DNA of 64,000 nt, taken from positions 1-64,000 of the forward strand of contig CBDFFH010000025.1 in NCBI GenBank assembly GCA_965246715.1, given 5' to 3'. The notes beneath the pieces are model-generated. The model worked only from the letters and a program-made list of their open reading frames with translations. It was not told where the DNA came from and did no database searches. Shown here one piece after another: positions 1 through 9,283 of the stretch (the first letter of the stretch is position 1; every line of letters begins with the position of its first letter). A program made the position numbers and the translations under genes. Origin of the DNA: Chamaesiphon sp. (lineage in GTDB: Bacteria; Cyanobacteriota; Cyanobacteriia; Cyanobacteriales; Chamaesiphonaceae).

Positions 1-473
1 GATGTCTCCGGTTGGGGAAAAACAACATCCCCAAAACCCAGATCGAGTTGAATATTCACCTTGGCTCTGTCCAAATAACCCAAACACCGCACCCGCACGC
101 CCTGATAGTCAGCATCCTTGGTAATTGGCTCGGTTACGAGCGATGCTGGGTCGAAAACCATGCCATCGGGTTCGACTCTCAGAGCGATAATCTCCTGCAT
201 CAGGCGGATAATCTGACTCGGATCGTTGCTAGTTTTGCCCAACATATCGATATCCATCGTCGGACGCGACTCCGAGGCATTCCACACCCGCAGCATCAGT
301 CCGCCCTTGAGGATAAACTGTTTGGCATAAGGCGATTGGGACAAGCGGTACAAGAACCGCTCCATTCCATAGTATTGCAGGAGTTCGTTAAACGGACGGC
401 GATCTTGCTTGGCTTGATTCAGGAGCCGTTGCCGCACTGAAGCTGCAATATTCTTCATCGGTCGCTCGGTCAT
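1..473 (-). CDS. abiEii: AbiEii-family nucleotidyltransferase toxin (type IV TA), runs off the window edge
   Basis: Not in ORF track. Manual minus-strand translation from ATG at 473: MTERPMKNIAASVRQRLLNQAKQDRRPFNELLQYYGMERFLYRLSQSPYAKQFILKGGLMLRVWNASESRPTMDIDMLG, with the AbiEii LKGG...R.T.DID motif. ATGA overlap with the abiEi stop. Confidence 0.9.
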   Translation of the reverse strand, partial: MTERPMKNIAASVRQRLLNQAKQDRRPFNELLQYYGMERFLYRLSQSPYAKQFILKGGLMLRVWNASESRPTMDIDMLGKTSNDPSQIIRLMQEIIALRVEPDGMVFDPASLVTEPITKDADYQGVRVRCLGYLDRAKVNIQLDLGFGDVVFPQPET

Positions 474-1072
474 AGCATCACTTCCAGGTAAGGTTTAATT
501 ACCGTTCCCACGCGGCAAATTTGGGCATATTCTAAGATCGATGCAAAGTTCGCCCGTTTGCGTTCTTTGTAGAGTTCTAAAGCCTCCAAAAACACATCCA
601 TCCCGATTTGATGTCGAAACTTGCAGCAGTCGGCAATGGTTTTCTCTGGGTTATAGACCCGAATTGGGATTTCATCAACTTCACGGATTTCAATCCCTGC
701 ATTGAAACTTGCTGTGGAAAAGCGGTGGAGGGTGATGGGTGGATAGTCGAGCCTGGGCGACTCAGACCCTTTAGGGAGTGCAATTTCCACATTTCGCGGA
801 ATCTGAGTGGTAATACCATGAATGGCTAGTGCTGAAATCAAGCAAATTACCCCCTGGGGAATTCGAGTGGCGACAGTAAATAGGTCTGGGTCGGATACAG
901 GAGCCTGTTCACAGAGGCGATAAACGCCACGAGAGATCTGTTCGAGCGTACCGCTGTCTCGAAGCTGGTAGAGGGTGCGGGGGTGAATGCCTGCTTTGAG
1001 AGCCTGAGCCGTCCGAATGAATCGACCTTGCGCTTGAATCGATTGCAATGCCTTGGTTGCAGCAGTCGCCAC
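470..1072 (-). CDS. abiEi: AbiEi-family antitoxin / transcriptional regulator
   Basis: 200 aa; N-terminal wHTH (LEQISRGVY), GVICLISALAIHGIT and PEKTIADC motifs; GTG start with AGGAG upstream; coupled to abiEii. Confidence 0.9.
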   Translation of the reverse strand: MATAATKALQSIQAQGRFIRTAQALKAGIHPRTLYQLRDSGTLEQISRGVYRLCEQAPVSDPDLFTVATRIPQGVICLISALAIHGITTQIPRNVEIALPKGSESPRLDYPPITLHRFSTASFNAGIEIREVDEIPIRVYNPEKTIADCCKFRHQIGMDVFLEALELYKERKRANFASILEYAQICRVGTVIKPYLEVML

Positions 1073-1086
1073 TGGTTCGCTCCTAA

Positions 1087-1140
1087 TTTTGGATAATATT
1101 ACTTATACTTGTTAATATCTATAGGTATTATTATCCAAAA
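1087..1140. promoter_or_regulatory. Inverted-repeat operator, probable AbiEi autoregulation site
   Basis: TTTTGGATAATATTACTTATA (1087-1107) and TATAGGTATTATTATCCAAAA (1120-1140) form a 21-bp inverted repeat with 2 mismatches just upstream of abiEi. Confidence 0.65.
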
Positions 1141-1247: not shown

Positions 1248-4200
1248 ATGTCCAGCATCTACGACAACATCGACCAAATTCTCCTCCCAGAATTGCAAGC
1301 TTACCTAAACCAAGCTTATCGAGCGGATTTTTGCGTTGGCTACTTCAACTTACGGGGGTGGCGGGAGATTGATGCGGACATCAGCAACTTTCAAGGGGGT
1401 GAAGATCGTTGTTGTCGGCTGCTAGTGGGCATGTACAAACTTCCCAACGAAGAACTACGTCGTGCCCTAGCAATTGGCACGTCTGACGATCGGATCGACC
1501 AAGGACAGGCAGTACGCTTGAAGATGTTGATGGCGCAAGAATTTAGAGAACAGTTAACCTATGGCACTCCTTCTGCTGCTGATGAAGCGGGTTTAAAGCG
1601 ACTGCGCCAACAGTTATTAGACGGACAACTTCAGGTCAAACTATACCTGCGCCACCTACTCCACGCCAAACTTTACCTAATCTATCGGGAAGATCGAGCC
1701 ACGCCGATTATTAGCTATGTGGGGAGCAGCAATCTGACCTTATCCGGCTTAAAGCGTCAGGGTGAGTTGAATGTGGAAGTAACCGACAAGGATGATACGC
1801 GGAAACTGGAGGGATGGTTTCAAGATCGGTGGGAAGATAAGTTCTGTCTGGATATCTCTCAAGAGTTAGCTGATATTATCGACGAAAGTTGGGCGGGTCG
1901 ATCGCTCAAGCCCTACTATGTCTACTTGAAGATGGCATATCACTTATCTCAAGAAGCGCGAGATGGCTTGAGTAATTACCAGACTCCGGCTAATTTCGGT
2001 TTATTACCGTTCCAAGAAGCTGCGGTCAAGATTGCCGCCCAACACATCAATAAACGCGGCGGCGTAATTGTCGGCGATGTCGTCGGCTTGGGGAAAACCC
2101 TCGTTGGAACTGCCCTCGCCCACCTCTGTGAAGAGGAGTATGGCACTAGCACCTTGATTATTTGTCCGAAGAATTTGGTGAAAATGTGGCAGCGGTATAT
2201 CGACACCTATGGACTGCGGGGTAGGGTAGTTTCGATCAGTCAAGTAGATCGAGTATTACCAGAGATTCCCGCTCGGTTCCGGTTGGTATTGATCGATGAA
2301 AGCCATAACCTGCGGAATAAAACAGGTAGCCGCTATCAAGCAATCAAAGACTATATCGAACAGAGCGGTAGTCGGTGTATTCTATTAACAGCCACTCCCT
2401 ACAACAAAACCTATTTAGATATTTCCGCTCAACTGCAACTGTTCCTCAAGCCTGAAGGGGATTTGGGGATTAAACCCGAAGCCTATATCCGCAGTCTGGG
2501 CGGAGAAATCCAGTTTCGGCGCAGACATAGCACCTCGCCCGTGAGATCGTTACTGGCTTTTGAACACAGTACCGAACCTGAAGATTGGCAACAGTTAATG
2601 AGTCAATATATGGTGCGTCGGACGCGGAGTTTTATCAAAAATACCTATGCCAAACGGGATGAGGATAGATACTACTTAGAATTTGCTAATGGCGATCGTT
2701 CTTACTTCCCCAATCGCCATCCCCGTACTGTCAAATTTAAGATTGAAGATCCGCAAACAGATCCTTATGCTCGTCTGTATGACACTAGTGTGGTGACAAT
2801 TATCAATCAACTCAATCTCCCGCGCTATGGGTTGGGAAATTACATCGAGTTGCGTCCAGCGAACGTCGATGAACGACGCGCAAGCTCCGATCCCACCTCA
2901 GAAGAAGCCCAGCAACTAGCTAATTTATCTAACGCTGGACAGCGATTGATGGGCTTTTGTCGGACTAACTTATTCAAACGGTTGGAAAGTAGTGGGATTG
3001 CCTTTATCCAATCGATCGAACGGCATATCTTACGCAATTACGTGTTTCTCTGGGCGATCGAGCATGGATTACCGTTACCCATCGGTACTCAGGATGCGGA
3101 ATTATTAGATGGCGGTGGCAGTGATGAAGATGACAGCTCTTTATTAAATTTAGACTGGGAAACCACCGATGAAGATGCAGCTACCGATGATACCGAATCA
3201 GGTATACATCAAGATTTCCAACTCCGATCCCAGCAAATTTATCAACTCTACCAAACTAGATATCCGCGACGGTTCAAATGGATTCGATCGACTTTATTCG
3301 CCCAGAGTTTGGGGCAAAACTTACAAGATGATGCTAACGCGCTGATGAAAATCCTAGAGTTGGTATCCGATTGGAAGATTGAGGACGATCGTAAACTCAA
3401 CGCCCTGATCGATCTAGTCACACACCAACACGCCGCCGAAAAGATTCTGATTTTTACTCAATTCGCCGATACCGCTCGTTACCTCCACCAAGCGTTAACC
3501 GCTAGGGGATTAGAACGAATTGGATTAGCTACTGGTCAAAGTCCCGACCCGACTGCCCTGGCTTGGCAATTTAGCCCCAGTAGTAATGACAAACCGATTC
3601 GCCCTCAAGATGAATTGAGAATCCTGATTGCTACTGATGTTTTGAGCGAAGGTCAAAATCTCCAAGACTGCGCGGTGATTCTCAACTACGATCTCCCCTG
3701 GGCGATTATTCGGTTGATTCAAAGAGCCGGACGGGTAGACCGGATCGGACAACAGGCTACAGATATTCTCTGCTATTCTTTCCTTCCCGCCGATGGAGTC
3801 GAGCGGCTGATTAACCTGCGGGGACGATTGCGCGACCGACTCGACCAAAATCATGAAGTGGTAGGTAGCGATGAGGCGTTCTTTGAAGATGAGGCTCAGA
3901 GGGTAGTTCTGACCAATCTCTATAACGAACGATCTGGGGTATTAGATGAGGCGGAAGAAGGGGAGGTAGATTTAACTTCCGAAGCTCTGCAAATCTGGCA
4001 GAGTGCTATTGAAGCTCGTCCCGAACTCAAAGGCATTATTGAAAAGTTACCCAATGTGGTTTATTCGACTCGCCACCATCAACCCGACGGCATCGATCCA
4101 GAGGGGGTTTTGCTCTATATGCAAACGGCTGAGGGCAATGATTCTCTGGCGTGGATCGATCGCCAGGGCAATAGCGTCACCCAATCCCAAACCAGGATTC

Positions 4201-4649
4201 TACGGATGGCGCGATGCAGTTACGATACCGCACCCTTACCTCGCCACCCTCTCCACCATCAGTTGGTCGAGCAGGGGGCTGAGTTGCTCGCCGAACAGTC
4301 GAAAACCATCGCGGGCACTTTGGGCAATAAACGGAGTGCGGCGGCGCGAACTTACGATCGACTCTTGGCTTATACCCAGCAAGTCCGTACTGAGTTACCA
4401 CTATTGGCACGGGGTACTGAATGGGAAAGCTTGGAAAGAGCGATCGAGGAGATCAATCAATATCCCCTCCGCCCCAATGCGATCGCCCGTCTCAACCGTG
4501 AATTTAAAGCCAGTATCAAAGATGAGGCTTTAGCGAAATTGGTGGTGTTCCTGCGCGAACACGATGCGCTGTGTATCATCGATAAAGAAACCGATTGGCG
4601 TACCGCTCAAATCATTTGTTCTTTGGGCTTATTCTCTACGCCAGATTAG
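1248..4649 (+). CDS. PLD-nuclease / SNF2-like SF2 helicase fusion (defence-associated)
   Basis: N-terminal LHAKLY...GSSNLT...ELN PLD-type motif; Walker A GDVVGLGKT, Walker B LIDESHN, motif III LTATP, TDVLSEGQNLQ, motif VI QRAGRVDRIGQ. Confidence 0.9.
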   Translation: MSSIYDNIDQILLPELQAYLNQAYRADFCVGYFNLRGWREIDADISNFQGGEDRCCRLLVGMYKLPNEELRRALAIGTSDDRIDQGQAVRLKMLMAQEFREQLTYGTPSAADEAGLKRLRQQLLDGQLQVKLYLRHLLHAKLYLIYREDRATPIISYVGSSNLTLSGLKRQGELNVEVTDKDDTRKLEGWFQDRWEDKFCLDISQELADIIDESWAGRSLKPYYVYLKMAYHLSQEARDGLSNYQTPANFGLLPFQEAAVKIAAQHINKRGGVIVGDVVGLGKTLVGTALAHLCEEEYGTSTLIICPKNLVKMWQRYIDTYGLRGRVVSISQVDRVLPEIPARFRLVLIDESHNLRNKTGSRYQAIKDYIEQSGSRCILLTATPYNKTYLDISAQLQLFLKPEGDLGIKPEAYIRSLGGEIQFRRRHSTSPVRSLLAFEHSTEPEDWQQLMSQYMVRRTRSFIKNTYAKRDEDRYYLEFANGDRSYFPNRHPRTVKFKIEDPQTDPYARLYDTSVVTIINQLNLPRYGLGNYIELRPANVDERRASSDPTSEEAQQLANLSNAGQRLMGFCRTNLFKRLESSGIAFIQSIERHILRNYVFLWAIEHGLPLPIGTQDAELLDGGGSDEDDSSLLNLDWETTDEDAATDDTESGIHQDFQLRSQQIYQLYQTRYPRRFKWIRSTLFAQSLGQNLQDDANALMKILELVSDWKIEDDRKLNALIDLVTHQHAAEKILIFTQFADTARYLHQALTARGLERIGLATGQSPDPTALAWQFSPSSNDKPIRPQDELRILIATDVLSEGQNLQDCAVILNYDLPWAIIRLIQRAGRVDRIGQQATDILCYSFLPADGVERLINLRGRLRDRLDQNHEVVGSDEAFFEDEAQRVVLTNLYNERSGVLDEAEEGEVDLTSEALQIWQSAIEARPELKGIIEKLPNVVYSTRHHQPDGIDPEGVLLYMQTAEGNDSLAWIDRQGNSVTQSQTRILRMARCSYDTAPLPRHPLHHQLVEQGAELLAEQSKTIAGTLGNKRSAAARTYDRLLAYTQQVRTELPLLARGTEWESLERAIEEINQYPLRPNAIARLNREFKASIKDEALAKLVVFLREHDALCIIDKETDWRTAQIICSLGLFSTPD

Positions 4650-5607
4650 CTGTTCACTAGATTAATTAGGGAACACTGACACAATAGAAAACTACGATTT
4701 AATTACCCCGATCCAGATTATGCCCTTACACCGCTCTCGCACTAAACAATATCTCGATCGCTGCGATTTTGAATCTCTATTTATTGAAGAGTTAGGGTGG
4801 GATAAAGGTAATTTAGTAAAACTCGATCTAACCATCGGTACGGAAAATATCAGTGTCAGATCGATCGCCGAAAAGCGAGGATTTACGGTGTTTGATTGTG
4901 AGGTGCTAGAACTGCCAGATCGATCTCGGAGTATGAAGATCGATCGCCAGTTAACTGAATATAGTCGCTCTCATATCCTCATTTTTAGTACCCAATCCAA
5001 ATCCGAACAGGTGTGGATGTGGGTGAGGCAGGAATCAGGAAAACCCATCGCTCCTAAATTTGAACGCTATCGCCAGGGGACATCTGGGGAGAGTCTGCTC
5101 CAAAAACTAGACTCGCTAGTTATTGCTTTTGAGGAAGAGGAAAAAACTACTCTGACAACAGTAACCCAGAAAGTTAAAAAAGCTTTCGATATCGAGAAAG
5201 TTACTAAGAAATTCTTCCAGCGATTCGAGAAGGAACACCAAGCATTTTTGGGATTTATTAGTGGGATTGAAGCAGAATTCGACCGCACTTGGTATGCGTC
5301 CCTGATGTTGAATCGGTTGATGTTTGTCTACTTCATCCAGAAGAAAGGATTTCTCGATAGAAATAGTGACTATTTACGCGATCGATTGAACAAATGTCAA
5401 GCCGAACAGGGCACGGATGAATTCTACTCCTTCTATCGCATCATTCTTCTGCGACTATTTCATGAAGGTTTGGGTAAATCGGCAAGAAATAAGGATTTAG
5501 AACGACTAATCGGTAAAGTTCCTTACCTCAATGGCGGTTTGTTTGAGGTGCATCAATTGGAAGAGAAATACACCACCATTCACATTCCCGATGATGCTTT
5601 TACCAAG

Positions 5608-5645
5608 ATTTTCGACTTTTTCGATGATTTTCGACTTTTTCGATG
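5608..5645 (+). repeat. Perfect 19-bp tandem duplication causing a frameshift
   Basis: ATTTTCGACTTTTTCGATG x2 (5608-5626, 5627-5645). Confidence 0.9.
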
Positions 5646-5662
5646 AATATCAATGGCATTTA

Positions 5663-6567
5663 GAGGATGTTTGAAAAGTCAGTTGGTAAAAAAGCTCACT
5701 CGGTATAGACTACAGATAGATAATGAGTAGTGCTAAGTGAGCAGAATGAGTAAAGCATATCCTAGTAACCTGACCACAGACCAATTTGAATTAATTAGTG
5801 GGATGATTCCAGCACCAAAGCCAGGTGGTCGTCCACGAGAGGTGGAGATCGCAGAGGTAATCAACGCAATCTTCTATCTACTGTGTGAAGGATGTCGTTG
5901 GCGAGCGTTACCAGGAGATTTCCCAGCATGGCAGACGGTATATACTTATTTTCGAGACTGGCGCAAGGATGGAACATGGGTCAAAATCCACGATCGGTTG
6001 AGAGCATGGGTAAGAATAGAACAAGAGCGTCAACCCAGCCCATCAGAGGCTGCAATCGATAGCCAAAGTGTCAAAAGTGCCGCAATGGTCAGTGAGGCAG
6101 TTGGTTATGATGCAGGTAAGCAAATCAAGGGCAGAAAGCGGTTTGTGACAGTAGACACACTCGGCTTAGTCTTACGGGTATGGGTGACAGCAGCCAATAT
6201 CACTGAACGAGATGGTGGCATCCAAGTGTTGAAAAAAGTCAAACAAATGGGTCAATCGGTATCTCGACTGCATACAATTTGGGTGGATGGTGGTTTTAGT
6301 GGTGAGAATTTTCTGCACTTGGTAATGGATGTCTGTCATTGGCTGGTGCAGGTCGTGCTGCGACCAAAAGAACATAAAGGATTTGTGCTATTACCTAAGC
6401 GTTGGGTTGTCGAACGTACCTTTGGTTGGTTAATGAACTGTCGGCGATTGACCAGAGATTATGAGAAACTACCTGAAACATCCGAGACATTTATTTATCT
6501 GGTGATGATCCGTATAATGGTGCGGCGTTTAGCATAAAATTTGACCAGAAACTTTTCAAACATCCTC
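5663..6567 (+). mobile_element. IS5 family (IS1031 group) insertion sequence, 905 bp
   Basis: 17-bp terminal inverted repeats GAGGATGTTTGAAAAGT / ACTTTTCAAACATCCTC; TTA target duplication (5660-5662, 6568-6570); intact transposase. Confidence 0.95.
5737..6537 (+). CDS. IS5-family DDE transposase
   Basis: YPSNLT, GCRWRALP, IDSQSVK, KGRKRF, RWVVERTFGWL motifs. Confidence 0.95.
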   Translation: MSRMSKAYPSNLTTDQFELISGMIPAPKPGGRPREVEIAEVINAIFYLLCEGCRWRALPGDFPAWQTVYTYFRDWRKDGTWVKIHDRLRAWVRIEQERQPSPSEAAIDSQSVKSAAMVSEAVGYDAGKQIKGRKRFVTVDTLGLVLRVWVTAANITERDGGIQVLKKVKQMGQSVSRLHTIWVDGGFSGENFLHLVMDVCHWLVQVVLRPKEHKGFVLLPKRWVVERTFGWLMNCRRLTRDYEKLPETSETFIYLVMIRIMVRRLA

Positions 6568-7033
6568 TTAGACGACCGCCCATTGCGTCAAGATAACGAA
6601 ATCAACCCCGATGTTTTAGGTTATATCTTTGAGAAGTACATCAACCAAAAACAGATGGGGGCGTACTATACCAAAGAAGATATCACCGAATATATCAGCA
6701 AGAATACGATTATTCCCTTCCTGTTTGATGCCGCCGCTCAAGAGTGCGCCGTCGCTTTTCAACCCGATGGCGCGGTGTGGGCACTCCTGAAAGAAAATCC
6801 CAATCGCTACATCTATGCAGCGGTAAGCAAGGGTGTAGACGCACCCCTACCCGCTGACATCGAAGCTGGAATTGAGGCTGTCGCCCAGCGAGACGGCTGG
6901 AATCGCCCTGCTACTGCTGAATATGCCCTGCCTACCGAAACCTGGCGCGAACACGTCGCCCGTTGTCAGCGATGTCTGGATCTCCGTGCCAAACTCGCCC
7001 ACGGGGAAGTTACCAGCATTAATGATTTAATTA

Positions 7034-8263
7034 CTCACATCTTGCACCAGAATATAAGTACTAGATTTAGATCGAGACTAATTCCAAGGCAAGACCCTGC
7101 GAGAGCAGAAAGTCTCGCTTCCGATCGATTTCTACTAAAAGTAAACTCACTGCGATCTGTGGCATTAACTGTTGAAGTGCCAGCTCAGATTCCTGTCTCC
7201 ACTCAGGCGGAAGGCTTACGTTTGAGGATAAATAGACCCAGTGGGTGAGTACAAAACTAATAAAGCTCAGAAGCAGCCAACGGTATACACCTAAAAGTGT
7301 TTGTTGACCGAAGCTAGCCAGCCCAAATCGATATTTAGCAGTCTTGAAAAATCCTTCAATTGCCCATCGACGACTGCCCCACCAAGCAATCGTACTGCCT
7401 TTAAGAGCGCGGGTCGAAATCACAAATCTTTTCTCCAACTTACCATCCCGTTTTAAGTAGAACCAGGAAGCCGTAACCACGCCCTCTAAACCTGATAGCT
7501 TAACTTGTTGACCCTTCTTGCCTAGCATCTTCATCTGTCTCCCATCTGCCAGTTTCCGGTTATTCGGTATACCAACAATTGCTTGATGACGAAGTTTTTT
7601 GACCCCGTTGAGGAATTCGACACTACTAAATCCAGTATCGGCTAATACTTGGACTCGAAAGCGGTAAGTGAGTTTCTTGGGCAAGGTGCGGAGCAATTTT
7701 AGCCCCAATTGAGCAGGAGTAGTTGTGCCTTTACCACGCCAGGAACGGAACGCCCAAGGTATTCTCCACTGTCCAACGACTAAGTACAGTACAACCAAAT
7801 GCAGTCCTCGCTTACCGTTGAGAATATGTATCAACGTTGCAAATGCTTTGAATTTCCCCCTTTTCTCCAATGTAGTCAGATCGATAATTACCTGCAAGTA
7901 AGGTCTTTGTCCTTTGGCTGTGTAATTACTCAACTGTTTCAAAATATGTTGGCGAGTCGTACGAATCACGGCTCTGGTTGGCCACCCATATTCATTGAAA
8001 AATCTGCTCAAAGCCGCAGGTGATTTAATCACCCCATGTTCTGGTAACATTTGACCATTCTTAGGTTCCATAAATAGAGCGAAACTAGCTTGGAGACTAA
8101 GTTTCTGATAGGGACTGGGCATCAGCTCTAACAACGTGTAGAGTATTAATTGGGCGTACGGGAGAATGGTATTCACTGTTCTCATCAATGTTTTTACACG
8201 CCCTTTTTCTCATATTTTGACTCCTGCGAAAATCAGTTGTTATGTACTGGTGCAAGATGTGAG
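7034..8263 (-). mobile_element. IS701/IS4-like insertion sequence, about 1230 bp
   Basis: Terminal inverted repeats CTCACATCTTGCACCAG (7034) / CTGGTGCAAGATGTGAG (ending 8263) around a DDE transposase; no clear extended target duplication. Confidence 0.85.
7067..8188 (-). CDS. DDE transposase (IS701/IS4-like)
   Basis: IIDLTTLEK, LADTGF, RRWAIEGFFKTAK motifs. Confidence 0.88.
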   Translation of the reverse strand: MMRTVNTILPYAQLILYTLLELMPSPYQKLSLQASFALFMEPKNGQMLPEHGVIKSPAALSRFFNEYGWPTRAVIRTTRQHILKQLSNYTAKGQRPYLQVIIDLTTLEKRGKFKAFATLIHILNGKRGLHLVVLYLVVGQWRIPWAFRSWRGKGTTTPAQLGLKLLRTLPKKLTYRFRVQVLADTGFSSVEFLNGVKKLRHQAIVGIPNNRKLADGRQMKMLGKKGQQVKLSGLEGVVTASWFYLKRDGKLEKRFVISTRALKGSTIAWWGSRRWAIEGFFKTAKYRFGLASFGQQTLLGVYRWLLLSFISFVLTHWVYLSSNVSLPPEWRQESELALQQLMPQIAVSLLLVEIDRKRDFLLSQGLALELVSI

Positions 8264-8265
8264 TA

Positions 8266-8422
8266 TACTGACCTTGCACCAATACGGAAAGACTAGTAAA
8301 AGCAGGGATCTGAGGGTACCCACCAGGGGCACCCCTACACAATTAACCTGTAGGGGTGCCCCTGGTGGGTACCCTGGATCTACGCCGCTCGATAGTAGAT
8401 TCAAACTGGTGCAAGATCTGAG
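8266..8422. mobile_element. MITE with ends related to the adjacent IS, carrying a REP-like hairpin
   Basis: Ends TACTGACCTTGCACCA / CTGGTGCAAGATCTGAG; internal perfect 27-bp inverted repeat AGGGTACCCACCAGGGGCACCCCTACA (8313-8339 / 8349-8375). Confidence 0.75.
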
Positions 8423-8449
8423 TGTATAGATAATTTTGGATCGAGAGCG

Positions 8450-9283
8450 ATGGACGTAGCAGTGATAGAGAATATTAACTCTCAATTGCACCAATTAGCC
8501 CTGCAAGAGCAAATCGTCATCCTGTATGCTTGCGAGTCAGGGAGTCAGGCGTGGGGCTTTCCTTCGCCTGATAGCGACTATGATGTGCGGTTCATCTATC
8601 TGCGTCCGCTGGACTGGTATCTGTCGATCGAGGATCGGCGCGATACGATCGATTTACCTGTAGACAAGGTATTAGATATCAATGGTTGGGATCTGAGGAA
8701 GGCGCTGAAGTTATTTAAAGGCTCTAATTCGGTTATTTATGAATGGATTCAATCGCCGCTCGCGTACGAATCGGATGGTAATCTGACCGCAGAATTACTC
8801 ACTTTAGCAAATAGTTATTACTCGCCGCGTGCTGGCATCCATCACTATCTGAACATGGCGACAAATTGTTACCAGGAATCCCTACAATCCTCACCAGTCA
8901 AGCTGAAAAAGTATTTCTATGCCATCAGGCCGATCCTTGCTGCGCGCTGGATTGTGGAGCATCGCACCGTGCCACCGATGGTCTTGAGTCAGTTACTACC
9001 GACAATTAGCGATCGTCCTGAAATTTTAGCTGAGATCGATCGATTATTAGCTATCAAACAAACTGCTACGGAAGCGATGACAATTCCAGTGAGTGCAGTT
9101 CTTAATGATTTTATTAGATCGGAAATAGAATATTGCGACAATGCCGTCAAACTCATCCCCAAACATTACCCAGATTCATCAAAACTAGATGCATTATTCA
9201 GAAGATATGTACTGAGCCTGAATGGCTATACACAAGACCAAGCTGAGGAGAAGTTTCCCGTGCTACCCGATTACCTGGAATAA
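8450..9283 (+). CDS. Pol-beta superfamily nucleotidyltransferase (YcgL/RlaP-like)
   Basis: ACESGSQAWGFPSPDSDYDVRFIY, GWDLRKAL and LKKYFY motifs. Confidence 0.85.
   Translation: MDVAVIENINSQLHQLALQEQIVILYACESGSQAWGFPSPDSDYDVRFIYLRPLDWYLSIEDRRDTIDLPVDKVLDINGWDLRKALKLFKGSNSVIYEWIQSPLAYESDGNLTAELLTLANSYYSPRAGIHHYLNMATNCYQESLQSSPVKLKKYFYAIRPILAARWIVEHRTVPPMVLSQLLPTISDRPEILAEIDRLLAIKQTATEAMTIPVSAVLNDFIRSEIEYCDNAVKLIPKHYPDSSKLDALFRRYVLSLNGYTQDQAEEKFPVLPDYLE

Follow-up and report, generated by a model that had tools for sequence, protein, structure and literature searches.

A PLD-SNF2 helicase-nuclease and its linked adenine methylase, the latter disabled in Chamaesiphon, form a candidate two-gene restriction-modification system

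We analyzed a stretch of 64,000 nucleotides of Chamaesiphon sp. (positions 1 to 64,000 of contig CBDFFH010000025.1, assembly GCA_965246715.1; hereafter the window), which carries a gene for a PLD nuclease fused to an SNF2 helicase and, immediately downstream, the remains of a gene for a large adenine methylase (Table 1). The helicase-nuclease gene is intact. A first-pass annotation of the window had described its product as a single HxK...GSxN PLD domain joined to a complete SF2/SNF2 helicase in 1133 aa, and Pfam, the sequence motifs and a structural model agree on this point. Pfam assigned PLDc_2 (aa 60-195), SNF2-rel_dom and Helicase_C (aa 716-834) to the protein, and the PADLOC model HKD+Snf2 matched it at 2e-43. 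There is one HxK...GSSN motif, with H139, K141, S160, N162 and E173, which we take to correspond to the active-site residues of Nuc and BfiI; all five are invariant in 64/64 aligned orthologues. In the same alignment, Walker A (GDVVGLGKT at 276), DESH (at 350) and motif VI (QRAGRVDR at 825) are almost invariant.

The AlphaFold model of the helicase-nuclease has a mean pLDDT of 76, and its nearest folds are RapA and chromatin remodellers. It matched Ino80 (8atf) with Z 17.6 and a root-mean-square deviation (rmsd) of 3.9 over 378 positions, and the SWI2/SNF2 ATPase 1z63 with Z 18.1 but an rmsd of 17.4 over 374, while aa 1-207 matched the PLD fold 5lzk (Z 11.6, rmsd 3.2 over 139). The match to SauUSI was loose (Z 13.2, rmsd 26 over 433). 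The C-terminal region is clade-specific, with alpha/beta and helical parts; Pfam gave no match for these 230 aa, and RapA_C is an Atlas lead only (0.84). A scan of positions 1000-1300 for sigma-70-like promoters found three sites, all facing the neighbouring abiE genes and none facing the helicase gene.

The next open reading frame starts at 4720, past a gap of 70 bp (4650-4719), as annotated at first, but the large methyltransferase then placed there does not exist as such. Only codons ~1-462 of a gene for ~1110 aa survive, and motif I, motif IV and the recognition domain are gone. The two surviving pieces are 96% and 93% identical to an intact relative of 1114 aa (P0222) and matched the PADLOC Type IIG model PDLC03628 at 3e-126 and 1e-78. 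The assignment of the pseudogene as an N6-methyltransferase rests on this homology and on the intact relatives, which bear DPxCGSG and NPP[Y/W]. A tblastn search with P0222 against the 55-contig, 99.8% complete genome recovered residues 1-297 and 308-466 only, so that the assembly yielded neither motif I nor motif IV nor the recognition domain. The gene is interrupted by an insertion sequence (IS) of the IS5 family, of which more identical copies occur in the same genome, and ends at an IS701-like element. The flanks of the latter lack the 2-bp duplication found at two other exact-ended copies, so that the apparent loss of the catalytic 3' half is consistent with an IS-linked deletion. Contigs of the sequencing run X1 are identical over the 19-bp duplication and the IS junctions (note that X1 may be the source sample), and a contig of the run X7, ~94% alike, has neither the duplication nor IS5; another contig continues beyond 7039. 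The window copy of the methylase is a pseudogene unable to methylate, and matters here only as evidence that an intact helicase-nuclease gene is tolerated without its methylase.

Table 1. Features of the helicase-methylase locus and its divergent neighbour in the window (IS, insertion sequence; ORF, open reading frame).
Feature	Position	Strand	Basis
Intact HKD(PLD)-SNF2 helicase-nuclease, 1133 aa	1248..4649	+	ORF, Pfam, alignment, AlphaFold model
Layout of the helicase-nuclease: PLD aa ~1-205; SNF2 ATPase aa ~235-890; C-terminal region aa ~905-1133			
Methylase pseudogene, 5' piece: N-terminal domain (aa 1-142) and helical domain	4720..5662	+	homology, PADLOC, tblastn
19-bp tandem duplication, shifting the methylase frame, which ends at 5646	5607..5644	+	
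IS5-family element inside the methylase gene; transposase 5737-6537; TTA duplicated at the flanks	5663..6567	+	NF033580 above cut-off
Methylase pseudogene, middle piece: codons 309-462 of P0222	6571..7032	+	
IS701-like element where the methylase ends; transposase 7067-8188, below NCBIfam cut-offs	7033..8264	-	
AbiEi/AbiEii type IV toxin-antitoxin pair (AbiEi 470-1072; AbiEii 3-473, cut by the contig end), divergent neighbour	3..1072	-	

Of the candidate stretches in a search for related loci, 346 were confirmed; the 63 loci retained come from several phyla. Helicase matches were found in 96 of the 401 genomes of a cyanobacterial-phylum sample (E<=1e-20, all clades), in 44/251 of a Chloroflexota sample, in 5/401 of a Pseudomonadota sample and in 3/301 of a Bacillota sample (core clade in the last two: 5/401 and 2/301, respectively). 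PLD and SNF2 matched within one open reading frame at 141 of the 148 loci tallied, 87 of these 141 belonging to the clade of the window protein. The methylase adjoins the helicase in 76 of the 87 loci; the other 11 all end <=2.4 kb downstream, L061 among them running directly into an unrelated gene. Other IIG-like methylases stand beside 40 of the 54 more distant PLD-SNF2 genes. Because the tallied loci were partly chosen by likeness, the linkage was re-examined in an even cyanobacterial sample, namely 47 of the 48 other core-clade places from the 401-genome search. A full-length helicase was present at 34/47 places; 26 of the 34 adjoin a complete cognate methylase, which lies downstream in 23 and upstream in 3, six adjoin a partial one, and two lie at contig ends. 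The first-pass annotation had proposed conserved two-gene synteny as a check, and with a complete or partial cognate methylase beside 32/34 full-length helicases the synteny holds: the helicase-nuclease and the methylase are a conserved unit with near-obligate linkage. No third gene is conserved, as the largest neighbour family within 3 kb, a small DprA-like gene, occurred in 10/73 loci. This gene was considered as the usual third member and rejected, being found at 20 loci overall but at 0/47 in the even sample, and is regarded as optional.

The intact methylases begin with an N-terminal domain (1-142) and a helical domain; the DPxCGSG and NPP[Y/W] motifs follow, then the recognition domain, which is variable, and the tail, which is conserved. 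The catalytic half of the methylase model resembles M.BseCI, CamA and M.TaqI (Z 14-17, rmsd ~4). DrdV aligned from residue 4 (Z ~11, rmsd 15). The recognition domain appears to turn over rapidly. Five methylases are 92-97% alike outside this domain and 23-32% identical inside it, and P0214 is 66% identical to P0222 overall, yet 85% identical in the recognition domain. Judging from these alignments, the swapping of recognition domains between near-identical methylases is a signature of restriction-modification. Entire methylase bodies are exchanged as well: over 38 loci, the class of the body changes 7 times on the helicase tree, and an MmeI-like body bearing the same N-terminal domain was found in Rhodococcus (L065). 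No conserved PD-(D/E)xK residues were found in 83 N-terminal domains: where the first catalytic residue is expected, no acidic residue is present in more than 25%, position 59 is E in 20/83, and the five commonest residues at position 61 do not include K. The PLD domain is therefore predicted to be the only candidate nuclease of the pair. Neither hhalign (HSDR_N_2 1.9%, MmeI_N 0.1%) nor Pfam or the PDB, which gave no meaningful sequence match, showed this domain to be homologous to HSDR_N or MmeI_N; MmeI_N is, however, an ESM Atlas lead (0.85) and the predicted helix-strand order is compatible with a restriction-endonuclease fold. A profile of this domain gathered 1798 clusters at 50% identity.

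An intact orthologous pair resides on the plasmid pSYSX of Synechocystis sp. PCC 6803, where a small gene and one for a VapC-type toxin separate helicase and methylase. The helicase is 65% identical to the window protein, and the methylase shares 59% identity with one surviving piece and 73% with the other. We identified this 1100-aa methylase with Slr6050 (M.Ssp6803IV) by plasmid, length and domain, the sequence record being without that tag. Slr6050 has tentatively been assigned the motif GA(m6A)GGC (PMC6105098). With no adenine in its complement, the motif allows marking of a single strand only, as suits a motor comparing two sites. A knockout of slr6050 would not segregate, while that of the type I methylase gene slr6095 did (PMC6105098); the non-deletability of slr6050 fits a live partner nuclease. 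The passages concerned treat Slr6050 as an orphan methylase and do not mention the helicase (PMC6105098).

With moderate confidence, we propose that the pair is a two-gene ATP-driven restriction-modification system of a Type III/MANTIS-like kind, in which the methylase picks the sites and a PLD-SNF2 dimer translocates and cuts, the copy in the window being disabled. The methylase of ~1100 aa would bind a short asymmetric site via its swappable recognition domain and place a methyl group on one strand. Bound to a site that is unmethylated, it would recruit the helicase-nuclease, which, having one HKD motif per chain, would have to dimerise to build one PLD active site. The SNF2 motor would then move along double-stranded DNA with ATP, and the cut would follow once it encounters another methylase bound to an unmethylated site, inverted orientation probably being the most favourable. 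The translocate-and-cut scheme borrows from the MANTIS proposal and the known working of Type III and ISP enzymes; MtsD of MANTIS has been described as dimeric with a single PLD site, and restriction in MANTIS is best when the sites are inverted (bioRxiv 10.64898/2026.09.23.753747). Cutting, dimerisation, direct contact of the two proteins, dependence on site orientation and an anti-phage role are what we infer here. The compact restriction system of the first-pass annotation thus stands as a hypothesis, given the conserved unit, the swapped recognition domains, the lack of conserved nuclease residues in the methylase N-terminal domain and the failure to find DrmA/B, DUF499 and PglZ in genome or flanks, but not for the window copy, which cannot methylate.

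Several points weigh against this proposal. The motif of Slr6050 was assigned by elimination only, and the protein could not be expressed (PMC6105098). If the methylase were the sole source of specificity, its deletion should be harmless, yet slr6050 could not be deleted, which sits uneasily with cutting that requires the methylase. Purified MtsD was without nuclease activity in vitro and its cutting was not reconstituted (bioRxiv 10.64898/2026.09.23.753747). The defence-island context is modest: 11 of 85 large flanking proteins had any PADLOC match, and 5/85 resemble separate defence effectors beyond GmrSD/ATPase-type matches (E<=1e-30). The evidence that the N-terminal domain of the methylase may dock the helicase is indirect and mixed. 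Its identity correlates with that of the methylase core (Spearman 0.50) at least as well as with that of the helicase (0.43), in a comparison from which 15/53 loci were dropped as the motif anchor failed, and helicases 92% identical to each other (L035/L036 versus L052/L056) pair with N-terminal domains 24% identical. On the other side, the cyanobacterial L176 and L012 share 93% identity in the helicase, 68% in the N-terminal domain and 36% in the methylase core. The methylase class changes 4 times on the tree of the N-terminal domain, as against 2 times on that of the core and 7 times on that of the helicase. Co-evolution of the domain with the helicase was accordingly not adopted as a general rule: the domain follows the helicase over cyanobacterial body swaps, not overall. 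The N-terminal domain and the helicase's C-terminal region co-occur in 75/76 versus 0/40 cases, a figure that is partly circular, both profiles stemming from one clade.

Four other explanations were weighed. Firstly, the pair may restrict without translocation and cutting, through a replication block like those of BREX and DISARM or an abortive action, or may need host or unlinked factors. The best Foldseek matches of the methylase model are BrxX/PglX, albeit aligned from residue ~158 and with high rmsd, BREX type 1 has been reviewed as 'restriction without cleavage' (PMC12707154), and the unreconstituted cutting by MtsD points the same way. An invariant PLD active site argues against it, as does the failure to find DUF499, DUF1998/MZB or PglZ in the genome, or DrmA/B, BrxC or PglZ among the 85 large flanking proteins, and we hold this explanation to be unlikely. 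Slightly less likely again is an addiction-type arrangement, in which the methyl mark simply restrains a helicase-nuclease that works on its own, apart from the methylase protein. It would account for slr6050 being not fully deletable where slr6095 is (PMC6105098), but helicases >55% identical keep company with freely swapping recognition domains and are unlikely to read sites themselves, and intact helicases persist beside dead methylases, in the window as well as at L253, L258 and L263. A role outside defence, that is, an orphan methylase of epigenetic function that travels together with an SNF2 protein for repair or remodelling, seems improbable to us; Synechocystis 6803 has been called virtually free of restriction endonucleases (PMC6105098) and the helicase fold is nearest to RapA and chromatin remodellers, but the patchy distribution, the plasmid copies, the frequent pseudogenes and the rapid turnover of recognition domains are against it. 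Finally, the view of the methylase as a common Type IIG enzyme that stands alone and brings its own nuclease, with the helicase as an accessory, is highly improbable in the face of near-obligate helicase linkage and 83 N-terminal domains without a conserved D...(D/E)xK, even though PDLC03628 spans the intact relatives end to end (1085-1459 bits), weak similarity of Slr6050 to HSDR_N has been reported (PMC6105098) and the Atlas lead is MmeI_N.

Should an intact pair restrict as we propose, it would be the simplest member of the group of defence systems that combine SNF2 with a methylase (MANTIS, DISARM, ARMADA and BREX-related ones), and how a site-bound methylase switches on a motor-nuclease would become approachable with two proteins. 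It would also correct a large set of 'Type IIG' annotations (the N-terminal domain is carried by 1798 clusters), and might account for a barrier to transformation and for an essential methylase that lacks an explanation in a model cyanobacterium. A further idea, possible but in our eyes doubtful, is that the pair represents a distinct ATP-dependent restriction architecture, in which a IIG/IIL enzyme lost its nuclease, the domain became a dock and cutting passed to a dimeric SNF2-PLD motor, giving a minimal two-gene core beneath DISARM, ARMADA and MANTIS with no loader ATPase. In that event, ~1800 clusters now annotated as 'Type IIG' enzymes on their own would each be half of a system, and Synechocystis 6803, regarded as lacking restriction, would carry a live restriction system, explaining why slr6050 cannot be deleted.

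The arrangement of the pair varies among genomes. In a cyanobacterial subgroup and at two Chloroflexota-type loci the order is reversed, the methylase gene lying upstream (L256/L290, L257/L291, L261/L294, L033 and L164/L304). In cyanobacteria, small passenger genes often lie between or just after the two genes (L007-L016, L022, L026, L064), presumably XisH/XisI-like and DUF29-like; VapC-type genes are among them by annotation. A short Argonaute system directly adjoins the pair at L154:9583-13301. Some methylases bear extra C-terminal domains (L035:7650-11612, L032:14731-16392, P0152, P0193-P0197, P0317), of Schlafen/AlbA_2 or PF04480/PF18741 (named DUF559 by a source), which are possible add-on nucleases. 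P0351, a protein of 1050 aa with cyclic-nucleotide-binding and iron-sulphur motifs by eye, has four stretches matching the methylase N-terminal domain, which suggests that the domain may be reused as a module outside methylases. At L126-L129, L143 and L147, helicases of a distant PLD-SNF2 clade are flanked by DrmMI-like methylases of 1500-1860 aa, as well as by genes for 2000 aa or pairs of genes for 730 aa that have no strong PADLOC match; these loci are possibly larger unnamed systems. A search for phage-encoded copies gave two short partial matches only. An excess of broken methylases beside intact helicases over the reverse, ~12 versus 1 in the helicase-query loci, was set aside as ascertainment bias, the even sample giving 3 versus 2-3.

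As to the surroundings in the genome, the AbiE genes do diverge from the helicase as the first-pass annotation had it, on the minus strand, but AbiE was rejected as a part of the system: only 1 (L002) of 177 other loci has it, and the link is incidental. Next to the IS701-like element lies a short non-coding repeat (8265-8425) whose ends resemble that element, with a perfect 27-bp inverted repeat at 8313-8375. Sequence related to it recurs at 33 genomic places, and it is likely a miniature inverted-repeat transposable element. A gene for an RlaP-family nucleotidyltransferase (PF10127, 4e-83) follows at 8450-9283 (+), just past the deletion point. Just outside the window end (C25:66383-67800), the IS5 of the methylase gene occurs twice in tandem, once in part and once in full. 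An MmeI-like gene in pieces (C26:8700-11700) and a broken Eco57I-domain fragment (C9:66529-67005) are further decayed restriction genes of the Chamaesiphon genome.

We finally compared the pair with the systems described to date. Type IIG/IIL enzymes (Eco57I, DrdV, MmeI) share the single-chain layout of an N-terminal domain, a helical domain, a gamma-class N6-methylase and a recognition domain. The intact relatives have the latter two in one chain, while the window copy is without both. The methylase of the pair differs from Type IIG enzymes in its near-obligate link to a separate ATP-driven PLD nuclease, and, because no nuclease residues are conserved, its sequence indicates that it is not a classical IIG enzyme; BrxX proteins, too, were formerly listed as Type IIG (PMC12707154). 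HKD-SF2 fusions are recognised restriction components of Type I/III-like systems (PMC10853773). SauUSI likewise has a PLD nuclease with a helicase motor, but brings an SRA reader of its own and cleaves DNA that is methylated. Type III (Res-Mod) and Type ISP enzymes are ATP-driven motors linking hemimethylated asymmetric sites. Against all of these and CglI/NgoAVII, the pair is set apart by an SNF2-family motor with an N-terminal PLD and a separate IIG-like gamma methylase chain. The same two-gene architecture with a variable recognition domain has been printed for Bacteroides ovatus, in a descriptive listing of an invertible Type II restriction-modification gene with a Cj0031-like methylase and a PLD(cd09178)-SNF gene (PMC9881135, Table 3); the likeness is by description only and the clade probably more distant. 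The full-text literature, with subscription journals, REBASE and supplements outside the search, gave no paper naming or testing the pair. The first-pass annotation had called it under-characterised, which is right in this respect and less so in that, besides the Bacteroides listing, PADLOC already models the methylase as Type IIG. By its sequences the pair appears to be a real and widespread two-gene restriction-like module, without a name in the literature searched.

DISARM, which includes a PLD nuclease, had been the comparison of choice in the first-pass annotation. DISARM class I and ARMADA likewise place a gene for a RapA-like SNF2 helicase beside a large PglX/IIG-like adenine methylase (PMC12458937). 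Their YprA/DUF1998 helicase was not found with the pair, whose PLD is fused to the SNF2 protein instead of being a separate DrmC, and the window helicase scored 145 bits on the DrmD model against a cut-off of 610. DUF1998 (PF09369) gave no match in the Chamaesiphon genome, with the control positive in 8/14 genomes, nor did PglZ (PF08665), and DrmA, DrmB, BrxC and PglZ gave none at E<=1e-30 among the 85 large flanking proteins. The early remark that drmA and drmB are missing from the window extends to the genome and the flanks, where DrmA/B were not found. The pair is not DISARM or ARMADA, having no DUF1998 helicase, and not BREX, having no PglZ.

MANTIS (Gao_RL / Gao_29; MtsA-D) likewise has an HKD/PLD nuclease fused N-terminally to an SF2/SNF2 motor, and its N6-adenine methylase hemimethylates asymmetric 6-bp sites and sets the specificity (bioRxiv 10.64898/2026.09.23.753747; PMC12839542). 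MANTIS has the DUF499 AAA+ ATPase MtsA, and BR systems are defined by DUF499 (PMC12839542), whereas DUF499 (PF04465) gave no match in the 99.8% complete Chamaesiphon genome (control positive in 2/14 genomes). Clustering of neighbours found no conserved small gene save the optional DprA-like one, DUF3780 (MtsB) not being searched by name. The methylase of the pair is IIG/BrxX-like, unlike that of MANTIS, and the window helicase scored 151 bits on the MtsD family NF042964 against a cut-off of 1100. In a quick tree of 89/111 rows, with long-branch warnings, 22 rows dropped for failure of the motif anchor and two thirds of L001-L063 thinned out, the window clade was monophyletic and apart from five above-cut-off MtsD proteins (Shimodaira-Hasegawa-like approximate likelihood ratio test, 100). 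With no DUF499 and a score below the NF042964 cut-off, the pair is not MANTIS/BR type 2 itself. Nevertheless, the closest described system is MANTIS/BR type 2 and not DISARM.

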